Source of the DNA: a virus
Lineage: Duplodnaviria > Caudoviricetes
Reading direction: 5' to 3' (one strand)
DNA: 64,000 bases
Virus record (IMG/VR): IMGVR_UViG_3300013947_000036
Span: 5,787 to 69,786 of that record
Numbering within the stretch: the first letter of the stretch is position 1; each line of letters starts with the position of its first letter. Below, piece after piece: positions 19,178 through 58,821 of this stretch. The notes below the pieces were generated by a model. That model had not been told where the DNA came from, searched no databases, and saw only the letters and a program-made list of their open reading frames with translations. Both the position numbers and the translations under genes were made by a program.

Positions 19178-19210
19178 ACTTTTATTATTTACTTTTTGTG
19201 AAAATAGAAA

Positions 19211-35501: not shown

Positions 35502-37214
35502 ATGTGCAAAATTTCTGAAAAATCTAAAAATATTTTAAAACATATTGTAGAAACTCATTGTGTTTCATATGCAAGAATTTTAAAATCGAAAAAATATTCA
35601 GATTTGTTTTCTGAAATTTCAGTTGCTTTTGAAAATTTTCCAAATTTAGATCTAAACACTAGAATTTTTTGGATATTGAATAACTTAAAAACATATCCAA
35701 AATGTGAAATTTGTGGAAAAGAACTAGTGAAGACAAAATGTCATCCACTTGAAGGATACACTACCAAATTTTGCTCTAGCAAATGTGCACACAAAAGTCT
35801 TGCATTCAAAGAAAAAATTAAAAATGCATTAAGTTGCTATGATAGACAAAAAGCAATGCAAAAACGTGAATTGACTTGTTTAAAAAAATATGGTTGTAGA
35901 AATGTTTCACAAAATTCAGAAATAAGAAAAAAAATTTCAAAAACATTTTCTGAAAAAACTGATGCTGATATTTTAAAAACTACATTGAAAAGAAAAGCTA
36001 CAAAATTTGCAAGATATGGAGATGAAAATTATTTTGACAAAAACAAAAAACAGTCTACAATTGAAAAGAAAACAATAGAAAATCCAAAATATTTAAAAAA
36101 CATTGTAGAAAAAAGAAAGAAAACTTGTCTTAAAATATATGGATGTGATTGTGCAGCACAACGTGACATTGCAAAGAAAAATCGTGAAATTGCAATTTTC
36201 AAAGAACTCTATGAAAAAATGATGTCAAATGAAAAAGTTCTTCCATTATTTCAATTTGATGAATATTTTAAAGTTAAAAACACTCAAAAACTGAAATGGA
36301 AATGCAAAATATGTGGAAATGAATTTGAGTGTGAAGCTAATGATGGACATGGATTTCTTCCAAGATGCTACAAATGTTTTCCAAAGCAACAACCTGTGTC
36401 AAATGAAGAAAAAACATTAGTTGAATTCATTGAAAAACTTGACATTGAAATTCAAACTTCATGTAGAAAAATAATTCCACCATATGAACTTGACATCTAT
36501 ATTCCTGAAAAGAAACTAGCTATTGAATTTGATGGTCTATTTTGGCATAGTGAAAAAGCTGATGCAGAAGTTAGTTATCATTTAGTTAAAAATGAGATGT
36601 GTGAAAAACTAGAAATACAATTGATACATGTTTTTGAAGATGAATGGCTTTTCAAGAGAAAACAAACAGAAAATTTTTTGAAAAAAATTCTTGGAGTGCA
36701 AAATTGCTTCAAACATATCACAAATGATTTGTGTGAAATAATTGAACTTGATGATTTTCAAACATAGCAATTCATTTTTGAAAATTCATTGATAGAAAAT
36801 TTCAAACATGATGTTTCATTAGGCTTGAAATTTAAAAATGAAATCATAAGTTTGATGACTTTCACAAAAATATATGAAAATTCATATATAGTCAATTGCT
36901 ATGATGACAAAATTGGATTTGATGTGAAAGAAAGCAAGAAAAAACTATTGGACTATTTCATTAAAAATCACAAAACAAAAAGACTTATAGCTTTTGTAGA
37001 CAGAAGATTGCGTAATGGAGAAGATTTGAAGAAACTTGGATTCAAATTTCTCTTTGCTGGAGTTCCAAATGCATATCTATGGAATTTCAAAAACAAAAAA
37101 CAAAAAGAAACATTAGAAAAATCAATTGAAATTTCAAATGAAGAAAAAAATATGCGTGAATACACACGCATATATGATTCTGGAAATCTAGTTTTTGAAA
37201 AAACTTATTTCTGA
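35502..37214 (+). CDS. Homing-endonuclease-like protein HE1 (Zn module + PD-(D/E)XK/Vsr-like nuclease + GNAT-like C-terminal domain)
   Basis: RIFWILN..YPKCxxC, KYG repeats, PYELDIYIPEKKLAIEFDGLFWHS, YDSGNLVF tail. Confidence 0.7.
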
Positions 37215-37849: not shown

Positions 37850-39622
37850 TTGTATTGTCTAGACGAAATTTTGAATATGCATAATGAATCAATAGAAGAT
37901 ATTTTGAGAAATAGACTTAGTGAAATGAAACCAACAGCATTTTTTTGTTGGCTGAAAAAACAAAAAGAAATTCTAAATGAAATATCTAAGTTCACAGAAA
38001 AATTAAATGACAGAAAATTCAGTTTAAGGACAAAATTGTATTGGTATTTGAATAATTTAGTTGATTTTCCAAGATGTACAGTATGTGGAAAATTGATTGA
38101 AAAAGACATTGTGAACATGAAAATTGGCTATCATAGAACATGTTGCAAAAAATGTTGCTATAAAGATGAATCTAGAAACAAGAAAATATCAGAAGTATAG
38201 TTAAATAAATCAATTGATGAAAAGCTCTAGATTGAATCTAGAAAACAACAGACATGTTTAAAAAGATATGGTTGCAAATATACATTTTAGTCTGACAACA
38301 ACAAAGAAAAAACAAAATTGACTAATTTGAAGAAATATGGTTGTGAAAATTGCATGCAGTCTGATGTCATCAAGAAAAAAATGAAAGAAAACAATTTGAA
38401 GAAATATGGTTGTGAAAACGTTTTCCAAGTCAAAGAAGTCAAAACAAAATCAAGACAGACATTGAAAAAACATTATGGAAGTGAAAGATGTCTATATTCA
38501 AATTCAATTATTGCTGAAAAACGAATCAAGCATATGACAGAGACTTTAAGGAGAAAATCTTATAGAAACTGCATTTTGCAAAATGCATTTGACAAACCAT
38601 GTTTCACAGAAGACTATTTTGCAGAAAACTACAGCAAAGATTCAGAATTTGAATTTGAATGCAAAAAATGTGGAAACAAATTTCATTCAAAACATATAGC
38701 TGGTTGCCATATGCTTTGTCCAAAATGCTATCCAAGAACATCATCATTTCCAGAAAGACAAATAAGTGACTATTTGAAAAGCATATGCAAAGAAAACATA
38801 ATTCTCAATTCAAAAAACATCATTCCACCTTATGAACTTGACATATACATTCCTGAAAAGAAACTAGCTGTTGAATTTGATGGCTTGTATTGGCATGCAT
38901 TTGAAAATTTCTTGAAGTCAAAAGGAGACAAAAACTACCATCTAGCTAAGACTGAGATGTGTGAAAAACTTGGAATACAATTGATACATGTTTTTGAAGA
39001 TGAATGGAAACACAAACAAAAAACAGTTAAAAATCTGCTTAAAAACATTTTGAATATGGATACTGAAAACAATCAACTGAATGGAAACTATGAAATAAAA
39101 CTAGCAACATCTGATGAAAGTGAAAAATTCATAGATGAAAACTGTCTTTACAGTAACATAAATTCAAAAATACATCTTGGATTATATAAAGAAAAAGAAC
39201 TTGTAGCATTGATGTTGTTTGGAAAATCTAGATTCAAAAGACAGCATGAATGGGAATTGCTTAGATTCTGCATAAAGCAAAACTATGTCATATATGATGC
39301 AGCTTTTGAAAAATTGCTTAATTTTTTTGAATAGAATTTCAAACCTAAATCATTAGTTTCATATGTTGACAGACGATGGAACACTGCAAAACTGCATCAG
39401 AAACTTGGATTCAACTTGTTGAAAAAAACTAAGCCAAACTATTTTTATGTAGACAATAAACATCAACAAAGATTCAAGAATTTTCAATTCAAAAAACAAA
39501 TATTGAAAAACAAACTTAAAAACTACAATGATTCATTGACAGAATACCAAAACATGAGAAACAATGGATATGAAACTATATATGATTGTGGAAATCTTGT
39601 AATGGTGAAAACATATGTCTGA
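37850..39622 (+). CDS. Homing-endonuclease-like protein HE2
   Basis: Same architecture as HE1, with SYVDRRW...LGF motif; five TAGs read through. Confidence 0.7.
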
Positions 39623-44343: not shown

Positions 44344-44453
44344 TATTTACTTTAGTTAAATTCATTTTTCTATTAGAAATTAATTTCTAAGACTATTTAC
44401 TCAAATTTAATTGAATTTCTATTAGAAATTATTTCTAAAATCTATTTACTTTT
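44344..44453 (-). promoter_or_regulatory. Three tandem promoter motifs with two interleaved palindromes
   Basis: GTAAATA cores in 44344-44353, 44394-44401 and 44443-44453; TTAGAAATTAATTTCTAA (44373-44390) and TTAGAAATTATTTCTAA (44422-44438). Confidence 0.6.
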
Positions 44454-45030: not shown

Positions 45031-46563
45031 TCAAACATGAACATATTTCAAATATCCACAATCAGCAATTTGAAATGTTTTGTTTGTTGAAATATGTTTT
45101 TTGTTTTTCAATTTTGGTCTTGTAGCTTTTAAAAGCTTGAAATCTGGAATTTTGAAGCATTTGTTGAAAATGCTTCTGTCTACTATGATGTTTTTTGTGT
45201 TGTCATCAATGTTGTAGAATTTTGAAATGAAATTTTCATCTGTCAAAATTCCTTTGATCAGATTTTCAATTTCATGCTTGTTTTTTCTCCATTGATCTTC
45301 CCAAACATAGACTAGCTTGATGTTGTTTTTTTCACAAAGCTTTGTCTTGAACAAATGTGCATTGATGTCATTTAGTTTTTCATGTGAATGCCAATATATG
45401 CCATTGAATTCAAATGCAATTTTCAGTTTTGGAACATAGCAATCAAGTTCATATGGCCAAATAACTTTTCTAGTTCCTCTTAAGACATTTTCCTTGCCAA
45501 CAATGCTTTCAACAAATTCATCTAATTCAATTTCTGCATGTGATTGCCTATGGCTTAACTATGGAAAACATTTCAAACATTTGAAAGCTGTCTATTTCTA
45601 GCCTTCTCTCATGAAAAAATTCATGTCAAATTTGCTAGAAAATTCATTTTGGCATTTTTTGCACTTGCATTTGTACAAATGTTCATCATTATGTCTATTT
45701 GCAGCAAATTCTTCAATTGAAAACAATGGAACAATCATTGTCGAATTTTTGAAATATTTGTTGTAGAATTTTCTTGCATTTCTCAAACAAGTCAAATTTT
45801 TTAGTTCTTTGTTGTCGTATTGGCATTTAAGTGAACAATATTGTGGCCAAACACTGCTCATTTTCACATTTTTGAAATCTAATTGTCTTCCACATGTTTT
45901 GCATCTAGGAATTTCTTGCATCTGATGCGCAATCCAATACACTCTAGTTTCTAAATTCAATTTTGTGAAATCAAGTGGATATGATTTTTCAAGCAAATAT
46001 TTATGCAATTGTTTGTTTTTGCATATCCAATTTCTGAAATTTCTTTTGTGATTGCTTAGCAAATTCACTATTTTTTCATTTGAAATTTCATCATATTCAA
46101 TAAGTTCATTTTTCATTTTCACATTGCATTCATCTGGCAATTTGTTCACATAAAACTAAGCTGTTTTTCCAGATTTGCTTATTTTGTTTCTTGAACCTAT
46201 CAATTTTTTAATGTTTGGATCTGAATTTGAACATTTTTCATCACACCAAAATTCGCTTTGTTTCAAACTTGGTTTGAATGTTTTTCTTAAAATCTTTCCA
46301 CAATATGCGCATTTCACTAATTTATGTCTATTGTTCAACACATACCAACATCTAGATGAAATAGGTGTCACATAATCGACAAAACTAGTTTCAAACATCA
46401 CAAAATCAAACAACTTTTTGAATTTAGTTGTTTTCAACATATTGAAATATGAAAAAGGAAACTCATTCACTAATCGCTAGAGAATGAGCTTCATGTCGAC
46501 ATTTTCATCAATCAAATTTTTCTATATCTATTCAATCAATTCATGTTTTCTTTTTCTATCCAC
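45031..46563 (-). CDS. Homing-endonuclease-like protein HE5
   Basis: TRVYWI...PRCKTCG, WPYELDCYVPKLKIAFEFNGIYWHS, DCGYL tail. Confidence 0.7.
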
Positions 46564-47317: not shown

Positions 47318-48637
47318 TTACTTTTTTCTAAAAATTAAATTACCGCAATCATATAAACTATAGAAATTTTTCTTTTCATGTTTTCCTTGACATGATTTTG
47401 AATGGAAAACTTCAATTGGTTGAGTTGTTGATATAAAATCATAATGTTCAATTTTCCAAAATGTTGGATATTTATCATGTGGAAGTTCAATTATGTCATT
47501 ATTTTTAGAAATATTAGTTTTTCCATTGATTAAATCAACAATCAATTTTTTCTGTTCTTGTTTTCGATATATCCAATCATCTTCATAAATATGAATCAAA
47601 TGTATTCCATGTTTTTCACATATATTTGTTTTATTAAGCAAATGTAATTTTTTGTTTAAATTATGTTGTTTTGCAAATTGCATACTATGCCAATATACAC
47701 CATTAAATTCAACAGCTATTTTCTTTTCAGGAATCCAAATATCTAACTCATATGGATATATAACATGTCGATTTATTTTGTTGTTTTTATTAAAAATTTT
47801 AAGTTTTGGAAATGTTTTTTTCAAAAAATTTGTTATTTCAGATTCATATTGTGAATGATTGCCAATTGTATGTGTATGTTCTATTTTGCAAAATGGACAA
47901 ACTGTTATTTTTTTATATGATTTTATTGGAGCATTGAAAACGTGTTCACATTTCATACATTGCCACCAAAATGATTTTTTGTTGCATTGAAAATTTTCAA
48001 CTGTTTTTAAATCAAATAATGGTTTGAAATTCTAATTATTTTTGATAATTTCAATAATTTTCAATTGTTTTTTCAAATGTATTTTGTCTATTGTACTTTG
48101 AAGCTTCATTACTGAATCTGTTTTGTATTTTTCAAATATAGATTTTTTGAAATTAGCTTTTACAATATCAGACTACATGCAATTTTCACAACCATATTTT
48201 TTCAAATTTGTTTCAATGACTTGTTTTTTGAATTCATTTGTTCCAAAATTTGTATATGAACCATATTTCTTAAGACAAGTTTCTTTTGTTTTTTTAGTTC
48301 TATCTGAATATATTGAATTGTTGCATTTTTTGCAATATGTTGGATATCCAATTGTCAATTTTACATTGTATGTAAATAGTTTTCCACATAGTTTGCATTT
48401 TGGAAAATCATGAAATCCATTAATAATCCAAAATATTTTTGTTTTCAAACAAAATTTTGGATCTTTAAGTTTTGGAACTTGTTCACATATCCAATTGTAA
48501 AGATTTTTATATTGTTTTCCACTGATAATAGAATTATAATGCTAAGGAAAAGTTTTTAAAATAAAATCCAATTGTTCTCTATATGAGAACAATGAATTCA
48601 ACTTTTCATGAAAATCTTTTAATTCTTTTTTTGTCAT
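47318..48637 (-). CDS. Homing-endonuclease-like protein HE6
   Basis: KIFWIING..FPKCKLCG, YPYELDIWIPEKKIAVEFNGVYWHS, YDCGNLIF. Confidence 0.7.
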
Positions 48638-51695: not shown

Positions 51696-52409
51696 TTATC
51701 TTTTATATGGAGATTCAATTTTATTTAACTCTATCATTTTTATGTTTTTTACAACAATCGATTTGTCATAAAATTTCATGAATATCCAAAAACCTGACAT
51801 TCTTTCTAAAATAAAACCTAATGCACGTTTTTGATATTTGTCTCTTAAATCTAGATTCAATTCTGGCAATATTTTCAAAGCAATATCAATACATATGTTT
51901 ATAAATTTGCTATATTCAAAAAACATTTTTTTGCTAAATACAAACATATTGCATTTTGCATAAACATGCTAATTAAGATATGTATTCAATAAAATTTGAT
52001 ATTCTTTTAAATATTTAGAAAATAAACTTAAAAATAAATCAAAATCATGTTTAATATGATATAAACAATAAGATTGATATATTGTAAAATATTTGTTTTT
52101 GCTAAATGTACATAAAATATTGTTGTCATTTAAATCATCAATTTTAAAATCTAAATATCTACGATATTGCGCAATTCCAATAAAATCTGGATTTCCAAGC
52201 AATTCATAATTTTTACTTAACCAATATATCATTGACATTTCATTCAAATATTGATTGTATTTTGATATATTGTCAATTCCAATGTCATCAGTGAATATCA
52301 TTTTAGATGAATTATATCCTCCACATCCAATAGGAACATATATGTCTTTTTTGAATTCATCTATAATTTCTGTTTCAAAACTATAGCAAATTGGAATTTT
52401 TAATGTCAT
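51696..52409 (-). CDS. DUF4422-like (glycosyltransferase-associated) protein
   Basis: DDIGIDNISKYN..LNEM..IYWL.KN....DFIGIAQYRRY, NMF, ER motifs. Confidence 0.7.
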
Positions 52410-52423
52410 TAAATATATTTTAC

Positions 52424-52475
52424 AAAAAAAATTGACAAGAAAGATGCCATGTCTTCAGCATGGCATAGAGTTCAC
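52424..52475 (+). mobile_element. 52-bp hairpin mini-element (copy 4)
   Basis: TTTTAC|AAAAAAAATTGACAAGAAAG ATGCCATG-TCTTCAG-CATGGCAT AGAGTTCAC. Confidence 0.7.
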
Positions 52476-52567
52476 AAAAAAAATGATAAAAAGATATTTT
52501 TATGTTTTAGATTATTTTTTTTTTGAAAAGTAAATAATAAATAACTTTATAAAGGAAAAAAATAAAA

Positions 52568-52768
52568 ATGACAGTAAATCAAGTAAGAAATTATATGATA
52601 AATAATATGCATAGAAATTCAGTTTTATATGCTGCAGCAGCTACATTAGCATTATTATCTGATGAAGTATCATCTAATGTATCATCAGAAGTATCATCTA
52701 ATGTATCATCAGAAGTATCATCTAATGTATCATCAGAAGTATCATCTAATGTATCATCTAATACATAA
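52568..52768 (+). CDS. 66-aa protein with SSEVSSNV tandem repeats
   Basis: Promoter motif at 52526, AAAGGA upstream, four 24-bp repeats at ~52664-52762. Confidence 0.5.
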   Translation: MTVNQVRNYMINNMHRNSVLYAAAATLALLSDEVSSNVSSEVSSNVSSEVSSNVSSEVSSNVSSNT

Positions 52769-52843
52769 TTTTAAAATTAGATTGTATTTAAATTATAAAA
52801 ATAAATAAATTTCATAAATAGAATAATTTTATTTTTAAGTTGA

Positions 52844-52893
52844 GTGCACTCTATGCCATGCTGAAGACATGGCATCTTTCTTGTCAAATTTTT
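52844..52893 (-). mobile_element. 50-bp hairpin mini-element (copy 5)
   Basis: GTGCACTCT ATGCCATG-CTGAAGA-CATGGCAT CTTTCTTGTCAAATTTTT; near-identical to copy 4, inverted. Confidence 0.7.
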
Positions 52894-52948
52894 GAAAAAT
52901 AGATTTAATATTAAATCAAAAAATAAAATAATTTGAGTAAATAAATAT

Positions 52949-54166
52949 ATGCAATTAGTAGAGAAACATATTATAAAAAGAGAAGATTCTAGATACAAAG
53001 AACTTATGGAACTTTGTCATCTTTCTAAGAATCTCTACAATACTGTTCTCTACACTATCCGTCAACATTGGTTTGAAACAAAAAACGATGACACAATCAC
53101 ACATAAATTTCTCAACTACTATGATGTTTGGAATATTTTAAAAAAAGACAATGTTGATTTTAAAGCTTTGAATGCACATTCTTCTTAGTTAGTGATAAAA
53201 CAAGTTGAAGCAAATTTCAGTTCGTTTTTCTCATTACTGAAACTCAAGACACAAGGAAAATATACTAAAAAAGTCCATCTTCCAAAATATCTTGACAAAG
53301 ATGGCTATAATGTGATTTCTTTCAACCAATTCAAGAAAAAAGAATTGAAAAACGGATATGTTTCATTACCAAAATCAAAAACATTGAAATTCAAAATCAA
53401 AAACACAAATCTTCATTTTATCAATATCGTTCCAAAGAATGACTATGTTCAAGTGAATTTCATCTACAAAAAACAAGAAGAATCTTTGAAAAAAGACAAT
53501 GGAAGATACATAGGAATAGATTTAGGTATAGACAATCTTGCAACATGTACTTCAAATGCATTGCAATCATTTATCGTAGATGGAAAGAAAGTCAAACATA
53601 TAAATCAATTTTACAACAAAAAACTAGGAGAAGTTAAATCAGAATTAAAAAAGAAAAACAACAAAGAAAAATCACATAAAACAAGACAATTGACATTAAA
53701 ACGAAACAATAAAATACAAGACTATTTTCACAAAGCTAGTCGATATATAATCAATCAAGCAGTTTCCAATGATATTCGAACAATAATAGTCGGACACAAC
53801 AAGAACTGGAAGCAAGAGGTTAATATCGGAAAAGTTAATAATCAAAAATTCGTTCAGATTCCTTTTGACAATTTGATTCATCAACTTAAATACAAAGGTC
53901 AATTGAAAGGAATAAATGTAATTGAAGTTGAAGAAGGATATACATCAAAGTGTTCTTTTCTAGACAATGAATCTGTTGAAAAACATGAAAAATATCTTGG
54001 AAAAAGAATATATAGAGGATTGTTCAAAAATTCAACAGGAAAAGTCTTGAATGCTGATGTGAATGGAAGTCTAAACATCATGAGAAAATATCTAAAATGT
54101 AACTGTGATGCTATTAAGCCAACAGATGCAGGGTTTGTGTATAACCCAGTTAAAGTCTACCTTTAA
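52949..54166 (+). CDS. tnpB: TnpB RNA-guided endonuclease (TnpB1; no tnpA)
   Basis: MQLVEKHII, SKNLYN, GIDLGIDNLA, EEGYTSKCS, NADVNGSLNI; one TAG at 53186 in SS(Q)LV. Confidence 0.9.
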
Positions 54167-54197
54167 CAAAGTTTATTCTATTTATGAATTACGGTAC

Positions 54198-54355
54198 ATG
54201 AATGGCTTGACAAACAAAAAATAGTGAAATCACGCTTAAAACATTTGATTGTGAATAATGAAAGAAAAATTTTTGCTAGAAAATGCATAGTCAAAGAAAT
54301 AGACAATGCATTGAAAGACAAATTTTTGAACAAATACCACATTCAAGGAAAAGAT
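54198..54355 (+). pseudogene. HE7 middle fragment, between two IS insertions
   Basis: EWLDKQKIVKSRL...FARKC...HIQGKD; 5' part of the gene missing. Confidence 0.75.
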
Positions 54356-54426
54356 ATAATAAATATTTCTGTTAAAAATATTAAAAATTGTTATAAATAT
54401 AAAATACTCTATGTATAATACTATAT

Positions 54427-55035
54427 ATGAAAAGCTGTAAAGTATTAAAATTATTAAATATAACACGTCCAACATTATGTAGATATGTTAAAAATGGTTT
54501 AGTTAAATTTAAACAACTTCCGAATGGTTTTTATGATTATGAAGAAGAATCTATCTATAAACTTTTAAATAAAAATATTGAACGTAAAAATATTATTTAT
54601 GCACGAGTATCTACACAAAAATAGAAAAATGATTTAGAAAATCAAAAAGCAATACTTAGAAAGTATTGTTCAATAAATGGGATAAAAATTTCTGATGAAT
54701 ATTCTGATATTGGTTCAGGAATAAATTTTGAACGGAAAGAATTCTAGCGATTAGTTAATGATGTAGTTAATCATAAAATTTCAAAAATCTATATAACATA
54801 TAAAGATAGATTGTCTAGAATATCATTTGATATGTTTAAGAATTTATTTTAGAATTTTAATTGTGAAATTATTGTTTTAAATAATACAGATGATAACAAA
54901 CAAATTGAAAAAGAGATTTTCAATGAAATAATTAGTTTGATACATTGTTTTGCAATGAAAGTTTATTCTTCTAGACGTTAGAAAAAATTAAAAAATATTG
55001 AAGAAGATTTAAAAATTGAAATAAATGAAGAATAA
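54427..55035 (+). CDS. tnpA: IS607 TnpA (MerR-like HTH + serine recombinase)
   Basis: IIYARVSTQK(Q)KNDLENQ, DIGSGINF, KDRLSRISF; four in-frame TAGs. Confidence 0.9.
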
Positions 55036-55128
55036 ATATTATTAATATTAATAATATTTAAAAATAAATATTAAAATAAAAGTAAATAATATTAAAAAAT
55101 GTAAATAAAATAAAGTAAATAAATACAA

Positions 55129-56520
55129 ATGCAAAGAGTGGAGACATATATTTTGAGAAAAACCAAAAACAAGAAGGAATATCTTGCTTTAGTTGATATA
55201 TGTCATAAATCAAAAAATCTTTACAATTATGTGAATTATGTTTTAAGACAATGTCAAACAAATAAACTTGAAAATATATTTGAATTCAAGGATTTGATTA
55301 AAACCGAAAAGAAAACAAAAAACGGAAAAATATATATTCAGAACTTTATTTCAGAATTTGATTTGTCAAAACGTCTTTCTAAACTGAAACAATTTGACTA
55401 TACAAATTTAAAAGCACAAGTTTCTCAACAAACAATTGCATTGGTATTTAAAAATTATAAATCATTTTTCAAGGCATCATCTGATTTTTTCAAAAATAAA
55501 TCTAAGTATAAAGGAAAACCAAAACTTCCTAAATATAAAGATAAAAATGGTTTGAATGTTTCAATTTTCACAAATCAATGTTCTACAATTGATAAAAATG
55601 GAAATCTGAAACTTTCAAAAGATTTGATTTTGAAATCAGTTAAAACTGATATTTCAAAACAAAATTTCAAACAAGTTAGGATAATTCCAAGACTAGATTA
55701 TTTTCAAATAGAAATAGTTTATGAGAAGTTGGAAGGAGAATATACAAAACAAGCAAAAAGAAAAAACAAAAAACTAAATACTGCATCAATTGATTTAGGT
55801 GTAGACAATCTTGCTACTATAACTTCAGACAACATGGTTCAACCAATTATTGTCAATGGTAGAGTATTGAAGTCTATCAACCACTTTTACAACAAACAGT
55901 TAGGAAACATAAATTCAATTTATTCAAAACACAATATTCATACAGGAAAGAAATTGAAAAAACTCAATTCAAAAAGATGTTTTAAGATAAATGACTATTT
56001 TCATAAAGCATCTAGAAGAATTGTTGATTTTTGTATAAATAATGATGTGAATACTTTGTATGTAGGATTAAACAAAAATTGGAAACAGAATTGTGATTTA
56101 GGAAAAAGAAACAATCAGAAATTCATCCAAATTCCTTATGACAAATTGATTCAAAAAATAAAATACAAATGTGAAGAAGTTGGAATAAATTGTGTTTGTG
56201 TAAATGAAGCTTATACTTCTAAATGTTCTTTCTTGGATAATGAATCTGTTGAAAAACATGAAAAATATCTTGGTAGAAGAACAAAAAGAGGGTTGTTTGA
56301 AAGTGGTAATAGAAAGAAATTGAATGCTGATGTGAATGGAAGTCTGAATATTTTGAGAAAGAACAATGGAAAAATAAAATTTTCAAACAAAATATTCAAT
56401 CCTATGAAAATAAAAGACGTAAATGCAATTTGTGATGTTGCTTATTTCAAATGGCAACCAACAAATACAGGTTGTGTGTTTCAACCAAATAGTAGTGATA
56501 CTATTAAAGATTTTTATTAA
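55129..56520 (+). CDS. tnpB: TnpB RNA-guided endonuclease (TnpB2)
   Basis: SKNLYN, SIDLGVDNLA, NEAYTSKCS, NADVNGSLNI; no TAG. Confidence 0.9.
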   Translation: MQRVETYILRKTKNKKEYLALVDICHKSKNLYNYVNYVLRQCQTNKLENIFEFKDLIKTEKKTKNGKIYIQNFISEFDLSKRLSKLKQFDYTNLKAQVSQQTIALVFKNYKSFFKASSDFFKNKSKYKGKPKLPKYKDKNGLNVSIFTNQCSTIDKNGNLKLSKDLILKSVKTDISKQNFKQVRIIPRLDYFQIEIVYEKLEGEYTKQAKRKNKKLNTASIDLGVDNLATITSDNMVQPIIVNGRVLKSINHFYNKQLGNINSIYSKHNIHTGKKLKKLNSKRCFKINDYFHKASRRIVDFCINNDVNTLYVGLNKNWKQNCDLGKRNNQKFIQIPYDKLIQKIKYKCEEVGINCVCVNEAYTSKCSFLDNESVEKHEKYLGRRTKRGLFESGNRKKLNADVNGSLNILRKNNGKIKFSNKIFNPMKIKDVNAICDVAYFKWQPTNTGCVFQPNSSDTIKDFY

Positions 56521-56549
56521 ATTTTAATAAATTTAATAAAATGAATAAC

Positions 56550-57005
56550 ATAGCAAAAACTAGACTTGGATTGTTTTACAACAATCATTTGATAGCTGTC
56601 ATGACATTCACAAAATCTAGATTCAACAAAAAATATGAATATGAATTGAGCAGATATGCAACAATTTCAAATTTCACAATTATTGGTGGAGCTGGAAAGC
56701 TTTTGAAATATTTTGAAAGAAATTTCAATCCAAAATCTATTGTCACATATGCTGACAGAAGATGGAGTAAAGGAAATCTATATTTCAAACTTGGATTCAA
56801 ACTAGATCATATATCAACTCCAAATTATTTCTATGTGAAAAACCAACATAGATTTTCAAGAATTCAATTTCAAAAACATAAACTTGAAAATATTCTAGAA
56901 AATTTCAATCCAAATTTATCTGAAGCTCAAAATATGAAAAACAATGGCTATGGAAAGATATATGATTGTGGAAATCTAGTATTTGAGAAAACTTATGAAA
57001 AATGA
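56550..57005 (+). pseudogene. HE7 3' fragment (GNAT-like domain)
   Basis: RLGLFY...VMTF...YELSRY...GGAGKLL...TYADRRWS.G.LY..LGF...YDCGNLVF. Confidence 0.75.
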
Positions 57006-58821
57006 ATTTGAAAAACTTAAAAATCAAATACTCAATTTCACAAACAAAACAAATATTCGTGATAGACTAGTGTATTTCAAAAAAAGAGTTAAACTTGATA
57101 CAAAATTGAACAAATCTAGTTTTTTCTTGAATTCAAAACTATGTTCGAATATAGTTGCTGCAACAAATTTTCTTCCAGAAAATGTTCCAATGTATTTTAG
57201 GATCAAATGTATATTGAAAAATATGACAAAACTTGAAAAATGCCAAATATGTGGAAAAGATCGTGCATTATTGTTTTCAAAAAAATTCAAAGATCCAATT
57301 CAAAAAACTACATGTGGAAATGCAACTTGCATTGCAAAACTTGCAGGATCTCAACACAAAATGACATCTGATGAAAAAATGTTGCACAAAAATATCATGT
57401 GTAAGCAAAAACAAGATATTGTCAAATACGCTAAGCAATTGCTAATTAAATATGAAACTAGAAAATTCAATTTGATTGACAGAAAAACATTAGAAGAAAA
57501 AATCAAAAATCTTCTAAAAACTTGCAATTCATTTAAAAATATTGCATTCATCAAAGACAAAATGTATGTGAATGAAATTGATTTTCTATGTTCAATTATT
57601 GATATGACATCTTTCATTGAAATTGACAAAAACAATTTCAAATGCAGATCATTCAGATGGGCTGAAAGATTATATTGCATTTTAAACAACTTGAAAACAA
57701 AACAAATTTGCAAATTTTGTGGATGTGAAAGCAAATTCATTTCATTTTATTAGGGTTATTCAGACACTTGCAAAAAATGCAGTGGACAAAAAATTCGTGA
57801 AGTCATGAATGGCATGCCATTATCAGACATAAGAAAACAAATAAATGAAAACAAATATGAAATTTTGAATTTTCCAACTAATACAACTAGACAACCATTG
57901 ATTGTCAAATGCAAAAAATGCCATCATATATCAAAAGTTTGGCTTTATAATGGCATAAGCAAAAAAATTTCTTAGCTTAATTTATGCAAACATTGCAAAG
58001 CTAAAGACAGAACATCAAAAGAAGAAAATGAATTGTTTGATTTTGTTTAGTCTTTGCTTCCAAATGAACTTATTTTTAGAAATGACAGAACTATCATAAA
58101 TCCACTTGAATTAGATATAGTCATTCCATCTAGAAAACTTGCAATTGAATTTGATGGCATATATTGGCATAATGATTAGCATATTGCAAACAACTATCAT
58201 TTGCAAAAAACTATTCTATGCAATAAAGCTGGATATAAATTAATTCATATATTTGAAAATGAATGGTTATCTGACAAAAAAATAGTCAAATCAATTTTAA
58301 TTGACAAACTTAAATGTAGTTTAAAAGAAACAATTGATGCAAATAAATGTTCTATATATGAAGTTAAAAATGAATATGAAAAATTAAAATGTCAAACATT
58401 CATAAATGAAAATAGTTTAATTAAAAATGAAAATTTTGATATTGCATTATGTATGAAATTTGAAAATTATATTGTAGCAACAATGACATTTTGTGAATTG
58501 ACTAATGATATATTCAAAATTATTGATTTTTGCATTAAATCAGATTTAAATATAAAAGAAGGCTTTGAATCATTTTTAAAATATTTTGAAAAAAATTTCA
58601 ATCCTAAAAAATTATATGCAAGTATCAATAGACGATATAGCATTGGAAATTAGTTTTTAAGTACTAGTTTTAAATTGATTGAAACTACACTTCCTAAATG
58701 TTCATATTTTATATACAATAAAAAACAAAAAATTTTTAATTCGCTAAAAACACAAACAAATAATTGTCATACAATATATGATTGTGGAAATCTAGTATTT
58801 GAGAAAACTTATGAAAAATAA
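56995..58821 (+). CDS. Homing-endonuclease-like protein HE8
   Basis: PLELDIVIPSRKLAIEFDGIYWH, IHIFENEW, YDCGNLVF; six TAGs read through. Confidence 0.7.

Follow-up and report, generated by a model that had tools for sequence, protein, structure and literature searches.

An IS607-family element of a phage that reads TAG as glutamine: recent mobility and the probable historical origin of its uneven TAG use

When a mobile element inhabits a virus that has reassigned a stop codon, does the distribution of that codon among the genes of the element regulate its movement, or does it record the path by which the element evolved? The question is raised by an element of the IS607 family in the virus record IMGVR_UViG_3300013947_000036, whose body occupies positions 54358..56549 (+ strand, 2,192 bp; 2,194 bp, 54358-56551, when one AT core is included) of the window studied here, by which we mean the whole stretch of 64 kb that was analysed out of a 69.8-kb IMG/VR viral contig with a CheckV completeness estimate of about 25%. 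The element encodes a transposase, TnpA, and a predicted RNA-guided nuclease, called TnpB2 to tell it apart from the TnpB1 of a neighbouring unit; tnpA contains in-frame TAG codons and tnpB2 has none. An earlier reading of the sequence, hereafter the original prediction, took this contrast for a design in which the nuclease is neutral to the genetic code and transposition is gated by it. Our analysis indicates that this is probably a recently active IS607 in a phage reading TAG as glutamine, with a TAG contrast that reflects history and mutational path and not a selected gate.

The genome carrying the element is that of a T4-like jumbo phage using code 15, because the window encodes a gp23-like major capsid protein together with sheath, tube, tape-measure, baseplate and prohead-protease genes, and because of its TAG and stop usage. 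When TAG is read as glutamine, approximately 51 long open reading frames (ORFs) tile the window (GC content 25%), about 47 of the 51 with in-frame TAG codons, and every ORF ends in TAA or TGA. Among the glutamine codons of the 47 resident genes TAG accounts for 172 of 687 (25%), CAG for about 6% and CAA for about 69%. Besides tnpB2, three more genes in the window have no TAG (0/12, 0/16 and 0/5 of their glutamine codons).

The transposase gene, tnpA (54427-55035, + strand), encodes a serine recombinase of 202 amino acids with four in-frame TAG codons (codons 66, 107, 142 and 185, at 54622, 54745, 54850 and 54979) next to four CAA and no CAG, whereas tnpB2 (55129-56520, + strand, 463 amino acids) has 17 CAA, four CAG and no TAG; the hand counts of the original prediction, TAG for 4 of 8 glutamines in tnpA and for 0 of 21 in tnpB2, were thus right. 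Read through its TAGs, tnpA matches the profile NF033518 'IS607 family transposase' with a score of 172.9 bits, against a cut-off of 110, along positions 3-186 of the 187 in the profile, a span that includes all four TAGs; it also matches PF00239, and in the PDB it matches 6dgc and 3lhk (catalytic domains of IS607-family TnpA) and 3ilx, with the serine of its YARVS motif aligned. The closest relative, L018 (92% amino acid identity), has a CAA or CAG glutamine codon opposite each of the four TAGs, two of which fall on glutamine positions invariant in the family, and neither TAA nor TGA occurs in the 202 codons of this 21%-GC DNA. Since the TAGs align with glutamines and no other stop interrupts the frame, the reading of TAG as glutamine in tnpA is, on the alignments, solid. 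Translation by the standard code would end after 65 amino acids, just past the catalytic serine, and tnpB2 is open under both codes, so that the predicted full-length transposase could be made only where TAG is read as glutamine, as had been proposed. The four TAGs appear to be recent, because the L018 tnpA is without TAG.

Is an element with such a transposase mobile? Proteins identical to TnpB2 and to TnpA occur on 32 and 41 metagenomic contigs, respectively, and the 2,194-bp element, with 0-7 nucleotide differences, occupies two loci, a relic of a Hef-like homing endonuclease as in the window (L030, L035, L037-39) and a site near nrdD (L032-34, L036); every copy at both loci has four TAGs in tnpA and none in tnpB. 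The IMG/VR contig L040 is an exact empty nrdD-side site, with left flank, a single AT and right flank (the flanks share 99% and 97% identity with those of the occupied locus), and because of it the element can be delimited as AT|body...AAC-AT| without target duplication. An empty-site pattern for the Hef-relic locus was sought in IMG/VR and not found. In L022, a copy with 99.3% identity, the right flank is different again, and the same three GTAAATA copies stand ahead of tnpB. Near-identical IS607 copies moreover carry nested deletions of 174 bp (L036), 384 bp (L032) and 673 bp (L031), the first two measured against L033/L034 and the third against window positions 56552-57224; all three begin exactly at the right-end terminus ...AACAT, and their far ends lie where the undeleted DNA reads ATAT, a 4-mer present also at both insertion sites. 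Given the two loci, the third right flank, the empty site and the right-end deletions at ATAT, the sequences indicate that the transposase with its four TAG codons is active in this phage population, or very recently was.

These copies allow some further observations. The Hef-relic and nrdD-side copies differ at 6-7 positions, all synonymous and confined to 55224-56034 within tnpB2, and their left end, tnpA and last 517 nt are identical; the block may be a recombination patch. Each right-end deletion brings new sequence to the position that would template the TnpB guide. In the variant with the 673-bp deletion (L031:4920-4930, corresponding to window position 57225), the terminal AT of the right end and the following G form the ATG that opens a truncated Hef-like ORF of 532 amino acids, and the start codon of this ORF is thus supplied by the element end.

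If the TAG contrast were a conserved property of the element, it should recur in other recoded phages, and a comparison of TAG use in tnpA and tnpB across such phages was the check that the original prediction proposed. The asymmetry was largely absent from the other copies. The pattern is reversed in L018 (TAG/glutamine 0/7 in tnpA and 2/22 in tnpB), and the remaining copies have TAG in both genes: L016 (3/8 and 8/30), L017 (1/6 and 8/23), L026 (5/5 and 7/20), Lak-A1 (7/8 and 10/23) and Lak-B9 (5/7 and 11/28). None of these six other recoded-phage copies has a TAG-free tnpB, the number of TAGs ranging between 2 and 11. Most glutamine positions of tnpB are conserved CAA codons in all relatives, and the change from CAA to TAG takes two substitutions. 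The TAG content of the element is also decoupled from that of the adjacent genes, being depleted in L018 (2 TAG among 29 glutamine codons, against 31 of 53 in the neighbours) and enriched in L017 and Lak, which fits mobile units bearing their own history. We note that the Lak-A1 pair (L010; MK250015 43752-45758; 7/8 plus 10/23) and that of L017 (1/6 plus 8/23) are very TAG-rich IS607 pairs whose neighbours are almost without TAG.

Relatives occur also in standard-code genomes with TAG as a stop (L021, L024, L028 and L029). Profile scans with TnpA over IMG/VR (22 loci) and JGI metagenomes (80 loci) recovered essentially only standard-code loci and no further recoded pairs, and peptide patterns of TnpB2 searched in IMG/VR gave no relatives. 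Sliding identity to L018 showed no sharp breakpoint between tnpA (79-93%) and tnpB (58-92%), a result that speaks neither for nor against a chimeric element with tnpA and tnpB2 of different origin. One contig of 51% GC and standard code carries a solo tnpB (L020:5001-6438) that is 68% identical and has the same right end; the contig's own genes encode glutamine by CAG only, whereas CAA and CAG are equally frequent in this tnpB, as would suit a gene that arrived recently from elsewhere.

The proposed gate depends further on when tnpB2 is expressed. The promoter motifs that the original prediction saw at 55078 and 55112 can be kept as signals and not as generic promoters: a sigma-70 scan of this AT-rich window found 42 sites against 39.5 +/- 6.6 in shuffled sequences, which is not above chance, and both motifs are copies of AAAAGTAAATA, belonging to a recurrent motif of the phage, AGTAAATA. 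In the window, 17 of the 20 exact copies of AGTAAATA are intergenic and lie upstream, in the sense orientation, of the start codon of a gene, and the genes downstream, which include both sheath paralogues, the tube, the tape-measure and the prohead protease, are TAG-rich. The motif resembles the T4 late promoter TATAAATA and may be a form of it, which would suit the gp23-like capsid. It is noted before structural genes at 19193, 26745, 32373, 33580, 33871, 44351-44450, 45017, 47322, 52529, 52936, 55081, 55114, 61502 and 63907, usually reads AAAAGTAAATA after a T-run and often ends 5-9 nt before the ATG, so that late mRNAs starting there would have no leader or almost none. Between tnpA and tnpB2, at 55078..55121 (+ strand), there are three copies of GTAAATA (at 55082, 55101 and 55115), two of them as AGTAAATA, with 7 nt between the end of the last copy and the ATG of tnpB2; L018 has one copy of the motif before tnpB, and in L016 and L017 it precedes tnpA instead. 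Because tnpB2 lies behind a motif common to the TAG-rich structural genes, it is most likely expressed late, together with them, the timing of AGTAAATA being deduced from the genes it precedes. If TAG is presumably decoded by then, a TAG-free tnpB2 loses the temporal advantage proposed for it, and the claim that TnpB2 alone is made under the host code becomes doubtful.

Several observations nonetheless weigh against an origin of the contrast in history and mutational path, and they have to be considered together. The difference between 4/8 in tnpA and 0/21 in tnpB2 is nominally significant (Fisher's exact test, p=0.003); the 0/21 of tnpB2 is also low against the window background of resident genes (P=0.002 under a binomial model, 0.01 under a beta-binomial one that allows for gene-to-gene spread); and the glutamine codons ending in G are four TAG and no CAG in tnpA, no TAG and four CAG in tnpB2. 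When the five other recoded copies are pooled (Lak-B9, counted later, is excluded), TAG makes up 16/34 (47%) of the glutamine codons in tnpA and 35/118 (30%) in tnpB (p=0.066), and in L026 and Lak-A1 the contrast between the two genes is individually significant. The comparison comprises seven recoded copies in all, some of them, such as the two from Lak, kin to each other. A tRNA search of the window and of the remainder of the 69.8-kb contig returned no tRNA gene, and hence no suppressor tRNA on this contig. Weak selection may therefore have favoured the loading of tnpA with TAG. A stronger claim is that of the selected gate, in which early in infection TnpB2 alone would be made and transposition would be turned on by the change of code. 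It draws on the truncation of TnpA under code 11, on a tnpB2 open in both codes, on the contrast within the element, on the tendency of tnpA to be TAG-richer than tnpB in four of the six other recoded copies, and on a similar gate proposed by Borges et al. (10.1101/2021.08.26.457843) for a recoded intron endonuclease. We find it nevertheless very doubtful: tnpB carries TAGs in every other recoded copy and L018 shows the reverse pattern, tnpB2 is probably transcribed late anyway behind the motif of the TAG-rich structural genes, and nearly all genes of the window need TAG decoding, a dependence that is therefore not special to tnpA.

Selection might have acted instead on portability. If the sub-lineage shuttles between standard-code phages and phages reading TAG as glutamine, a TAG-free tnpB, and usually a TAG-free tnpA as well, would spread further, and the copy in the window would have become locked to code 15 recently. 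Consistent with this are the close relatives in standard-code contexts listed above, the TAG-poor element of L018 among TAG-rich neighbours, the L068 tnpA, which is 92% identical with an uninterrupted match, and the four CAG codons kept by tnpB2 in a genome whose resident genes prefer TAG to CAG. The copies of L016, L017, L026 and Lak, however, are TAG-rich in both genes, so that the family overall has not been kept portable, and the sub-lineage gives no direct sign of transfer between codes, its pattern being the same as that of a simple recent arrival; we hold this explanation to be unlikely. A broader version, in which IS607 elements of TAG-reading phages are tamed or timed by codon choice, with TAG-loaded tnpA genes in four lineages (7/8, 5/7, 5/5 and 4/8), sometimes far above background, and a nuclease and guide module readable in both codes in some lineages, seems to us quite improbable; if it were true, the genetic code itself would act as a barrier to a transposon, in its regulation as well as in its host range. 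Lastly, the division of tnpA under code 11 into a 65-amino-acid ORF and fragments is what a decaying pseudogene would show, with TAGs that are real stops and TnpB2 as the only functional product. This candidate was rejected on the absence of TAA and TGA, the full-length NF033518 match, the TAGs on glutamine positions and the presence of the element with this exact tnpA at two loci, along with the empty site and the AT-core deletions at the right end, and its probability is almost negligible.

We prefer the reading of a recently active element whose codon contrast stems from its history, and its workings may be pictured as follows. The element consists of a left end, the serine recombinase gene tnpA, the RuvC nuclease gene tnpB2 and a right end that probably doubles as guide-RNA scaffold. 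TnpA would move it conservatively, by exchange at an AT core of 2 bp, into sites of the ATAT type, which are not duplicated in the process, the landing site in this genome being the truncated Hef-like relic, and the four TAG glutamine codons would lock transposition to infections by code-15 phages. Transcription of tnpB2 would start from the late-type phage motif inside the element, and by analogy with the TnpB proteins of IS605 and IS607 elements, TnpB2 may cut empty sites (ATAT plus flank) in co-infecting genomes, whereby the element would be restored or spread. The TAG contrast would follow from tnpB glutamines that are mostly conserved CAA codons, two steps away from TAG, in a sub-lineage that is TAG-poor and occurs also in standard-code genomes. 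The long-term residence in code-15 phages that had been proposed is right only in part, since the TAGs of tnpA are recent; the phage-type expression signals do mark the element as adapted to this phage clade.

The anatomy of the element agrees with its assignment to the IS607 family, which stands on the NF033518 match, the gene order, the AT core and the lack of target duplication; tnpA comes first and tnpB follows it on the same strand, likewise in L016-L018, L021, L024, L026 and Lak. The left AT crossover core is placed at 54356..54357 on the basis of the single AT in the empty site L040 and of the in-frame join of the Hef pieces. A TATAAT hexamer at 54414..54419 (+ strand), 7 nt before the ATG of tnpA, is a candidate promoter of a leaderless tnpA mRNA; L018 has it at the equivalent position, and so do L024/L025, which are standard-code copies of 44% GC. 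Only 69 nt separate the left junction from the ATG of tnpA, and no Intron_gpI match appeared at E<=1, which indicates that the element is not an IStron. The tips are not complementary; one 40-nt subterminal pair (54367-54406 / 56502-56541) is 73% complementary and is accompanied by TTAAAAAT-like repeats, in a sequence type (AT-only DNA) in which 80 such pairs arise. A perfect AT-only palindrome of 28 bp (55033..55060), found as a self-match on the opposite strand, overlaps the stop codon of tnpA and might be a terminator or an operator; L018 holds a partly similar sequence.

With regard to the nuclease, tnpB2 matches NF040570 'guided_TnpB' above the cut-off (148 bits), and its RuvC triad D222/E360/D401 is invariant in 22 homologues, TnpB1 included. 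The 3' region and right end (56429..56551, + strand; hairpin at 56470-56486; terminus ...ATAACAT) form a conserved structured region with 16 predicted pairs, nine of which show compensatory double changes (RNAalifold, 10 relatives). Covariation over the last ~120 nt is the expected look of a TnpB guide-RNA scaffold, and the region is a candidate omega RNA or reRNA scaffold; a scan of 52300-57300 against Rfam at E<=1 gave no family, including RAGATH-18, the IS605-orfB motifs and group I introns. The terminus (A/T)ACAT is kept in all relatives, even GC-rich standard-code ones. By its position, and by analogy with IS605 and IS607 TnpB proteins (PMC11061315, PMC10690162), the right flank at 56552..56571 (+ strand) would template the TnpB2 guide, and this sequence is unique in the window except for a site with three mismatches at 57110-57127. 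Insertion and deletion sites all read ATAT directly 5' of the flank, so the target-adjacent motif (TAM) is expected, by analogy, to be AT-rich and ATAT-like.

The site into which the element inserted was described originally as a homing-endonuclease gene, and this holds for the kind of sequence, which is Hef-like, but not for its state, since it is a C-terminal relic only. Its N-piece lies at 54188..54357 (+ strand; approximately residues 281-333 of AR9 Hef) and its C-piece at 56552..57005 (+ strand; approximately residues 334-490, with a TGA stop at 57003-57005). The N-piece gives tblastn matches to Hef-like endonucleases of many jumbo phages, and both pieces are matched by full-length Hef proteins: residues 281-339 of AR9 Hef align to 54200-54373 and residues 334-490 to 56550-56984. 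Nothing upstream of TnpB1 corresponds, in the tblastn comparison, to the roughly 280 residues at the N-terminus of Hef, so that the target is a dead C-terminal remnant and not a whole gene. ATA stands at both junctions of the element (54356-58 and 56550-52) and GAT|ATA GCA reads in frame across the join; three full-length Hef proteins join the two pieces at consecutive residues in tblastn. The insertion thus keeps the frame of the relic and is clean, as had been claimed.

The left junction of the element lies 158 bp downstream of the right end of TnpB1, a unit without TnpA at 52778..54199 (+ strand; left boundary set by the start of L031/L030 identity), again in keeping with the original description. 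Its gene, tnpB1 (ORF 52949-54166, 405 amino acids), matches NF040570 'guided_TnpB' above the cut-off, has one TAG among 18 glutamine codons and is preceded at 5 nt from its ATG by AGTAAATA. Both right ends join the flanking DNA as AC|AT (54197|54198 and 56549|56550), as noted previously, because the right end of TnpB1 (...GGTACAT) has the same terminus as that of the IS607 element, to which it is homologous in terminus and hairpin. An inverted repeat of ~40 bp, perfect and with arms at 52432-52470 and 52850-52890, has one arm inside the TnpB1 unit; each arm is a hairpin with an 8-bp stem that scored as terminator-like, and a small repetitive ORF (52568-52768) lies between the arms. Five further Hef-like or HNH-type homing-endonuclease genes, all with TAG codons and three of them full-length, are spread over a 23-kb stretch of head and tail genes (35502-37214, 37877-39622, 45031-46494 and 47318-48637 on the - strand, and 56995-58821).

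On present evidence these results reveal no new regulatory principle. They provide a well-delimited natural case of a transposon that is mobile in an alternative-code virus and cannot make its transposase with the standard code, which bears on genetic codes as barriers to mobile DNA. They also provide a compact test system, in which an exact empty site and an AT-core target are joined by deletions at the right end, each of which would re-template the TnpB guide. A literature search found no paper on an IS607 with a TAG-coded transposase; large phages are already known to carry IS607 elements and TnpB cassettes. Borges et al. (10.1101/2021.08.26.457843) proposed a delay based on recoding for an intron homing endonuclease, with transposons unmentioned; the likeness is that a reassigned in-frame stop would delay a selfish enzyme until the code switch, and the difference that their case concerns the homing endonuclease of a phage with recoded TGA whereas here the enzyme is a transposase and the pattern is not conserved across copies.

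Among characterised elements, IS607 of Helicobacter pylori (Kersulyte 2000; Chen et al. 2018, PMC6188088) is alike in having tnpA, with an N-terminal DNA-binding domain, followed by tnpB, and perhaps in having no clear terminal inverted repeats. The hallmarks of the family are the lack of a target-site duplication and an identical 2-bp core at the ends and in the target, which is GG in H. pylori (PMC6188088); the element described here has instead an AT core with ATAT-type sites, four TAG glutamine codons in tnpA, an internal late-type phage motif before tnpB and a recoded jumbo phage as host. The ISFba1 reRNA system (PMC11061315) and the TnpB of CboIStron (PMC10690162) share with it the intact RuvC triad, a covarying RNA extending over the 3' end of tnpB to the right end and a guide expected from the right flank; in contrast to them, no Rfam family matches at E<=1, most of the zinc-finger cysteines are missing, the expected TAM is AT-rich and ATAT-like instead of AGGAG/GAGGG, and there is no group I intron. 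The IS607 copies of standard-code phages (Campylobacter phage CP21, ISCbt4 of Clostridium phage c-st, and Staphylococcus and cyanophage copies) belong to the same family and also reside in large virulent phages, but here the transposase depends on TAG suppression. What distinguishes this element is hence the combination of an AT core, code-15 codons in tnpA and a late-type phage motif that would drive tnpB.

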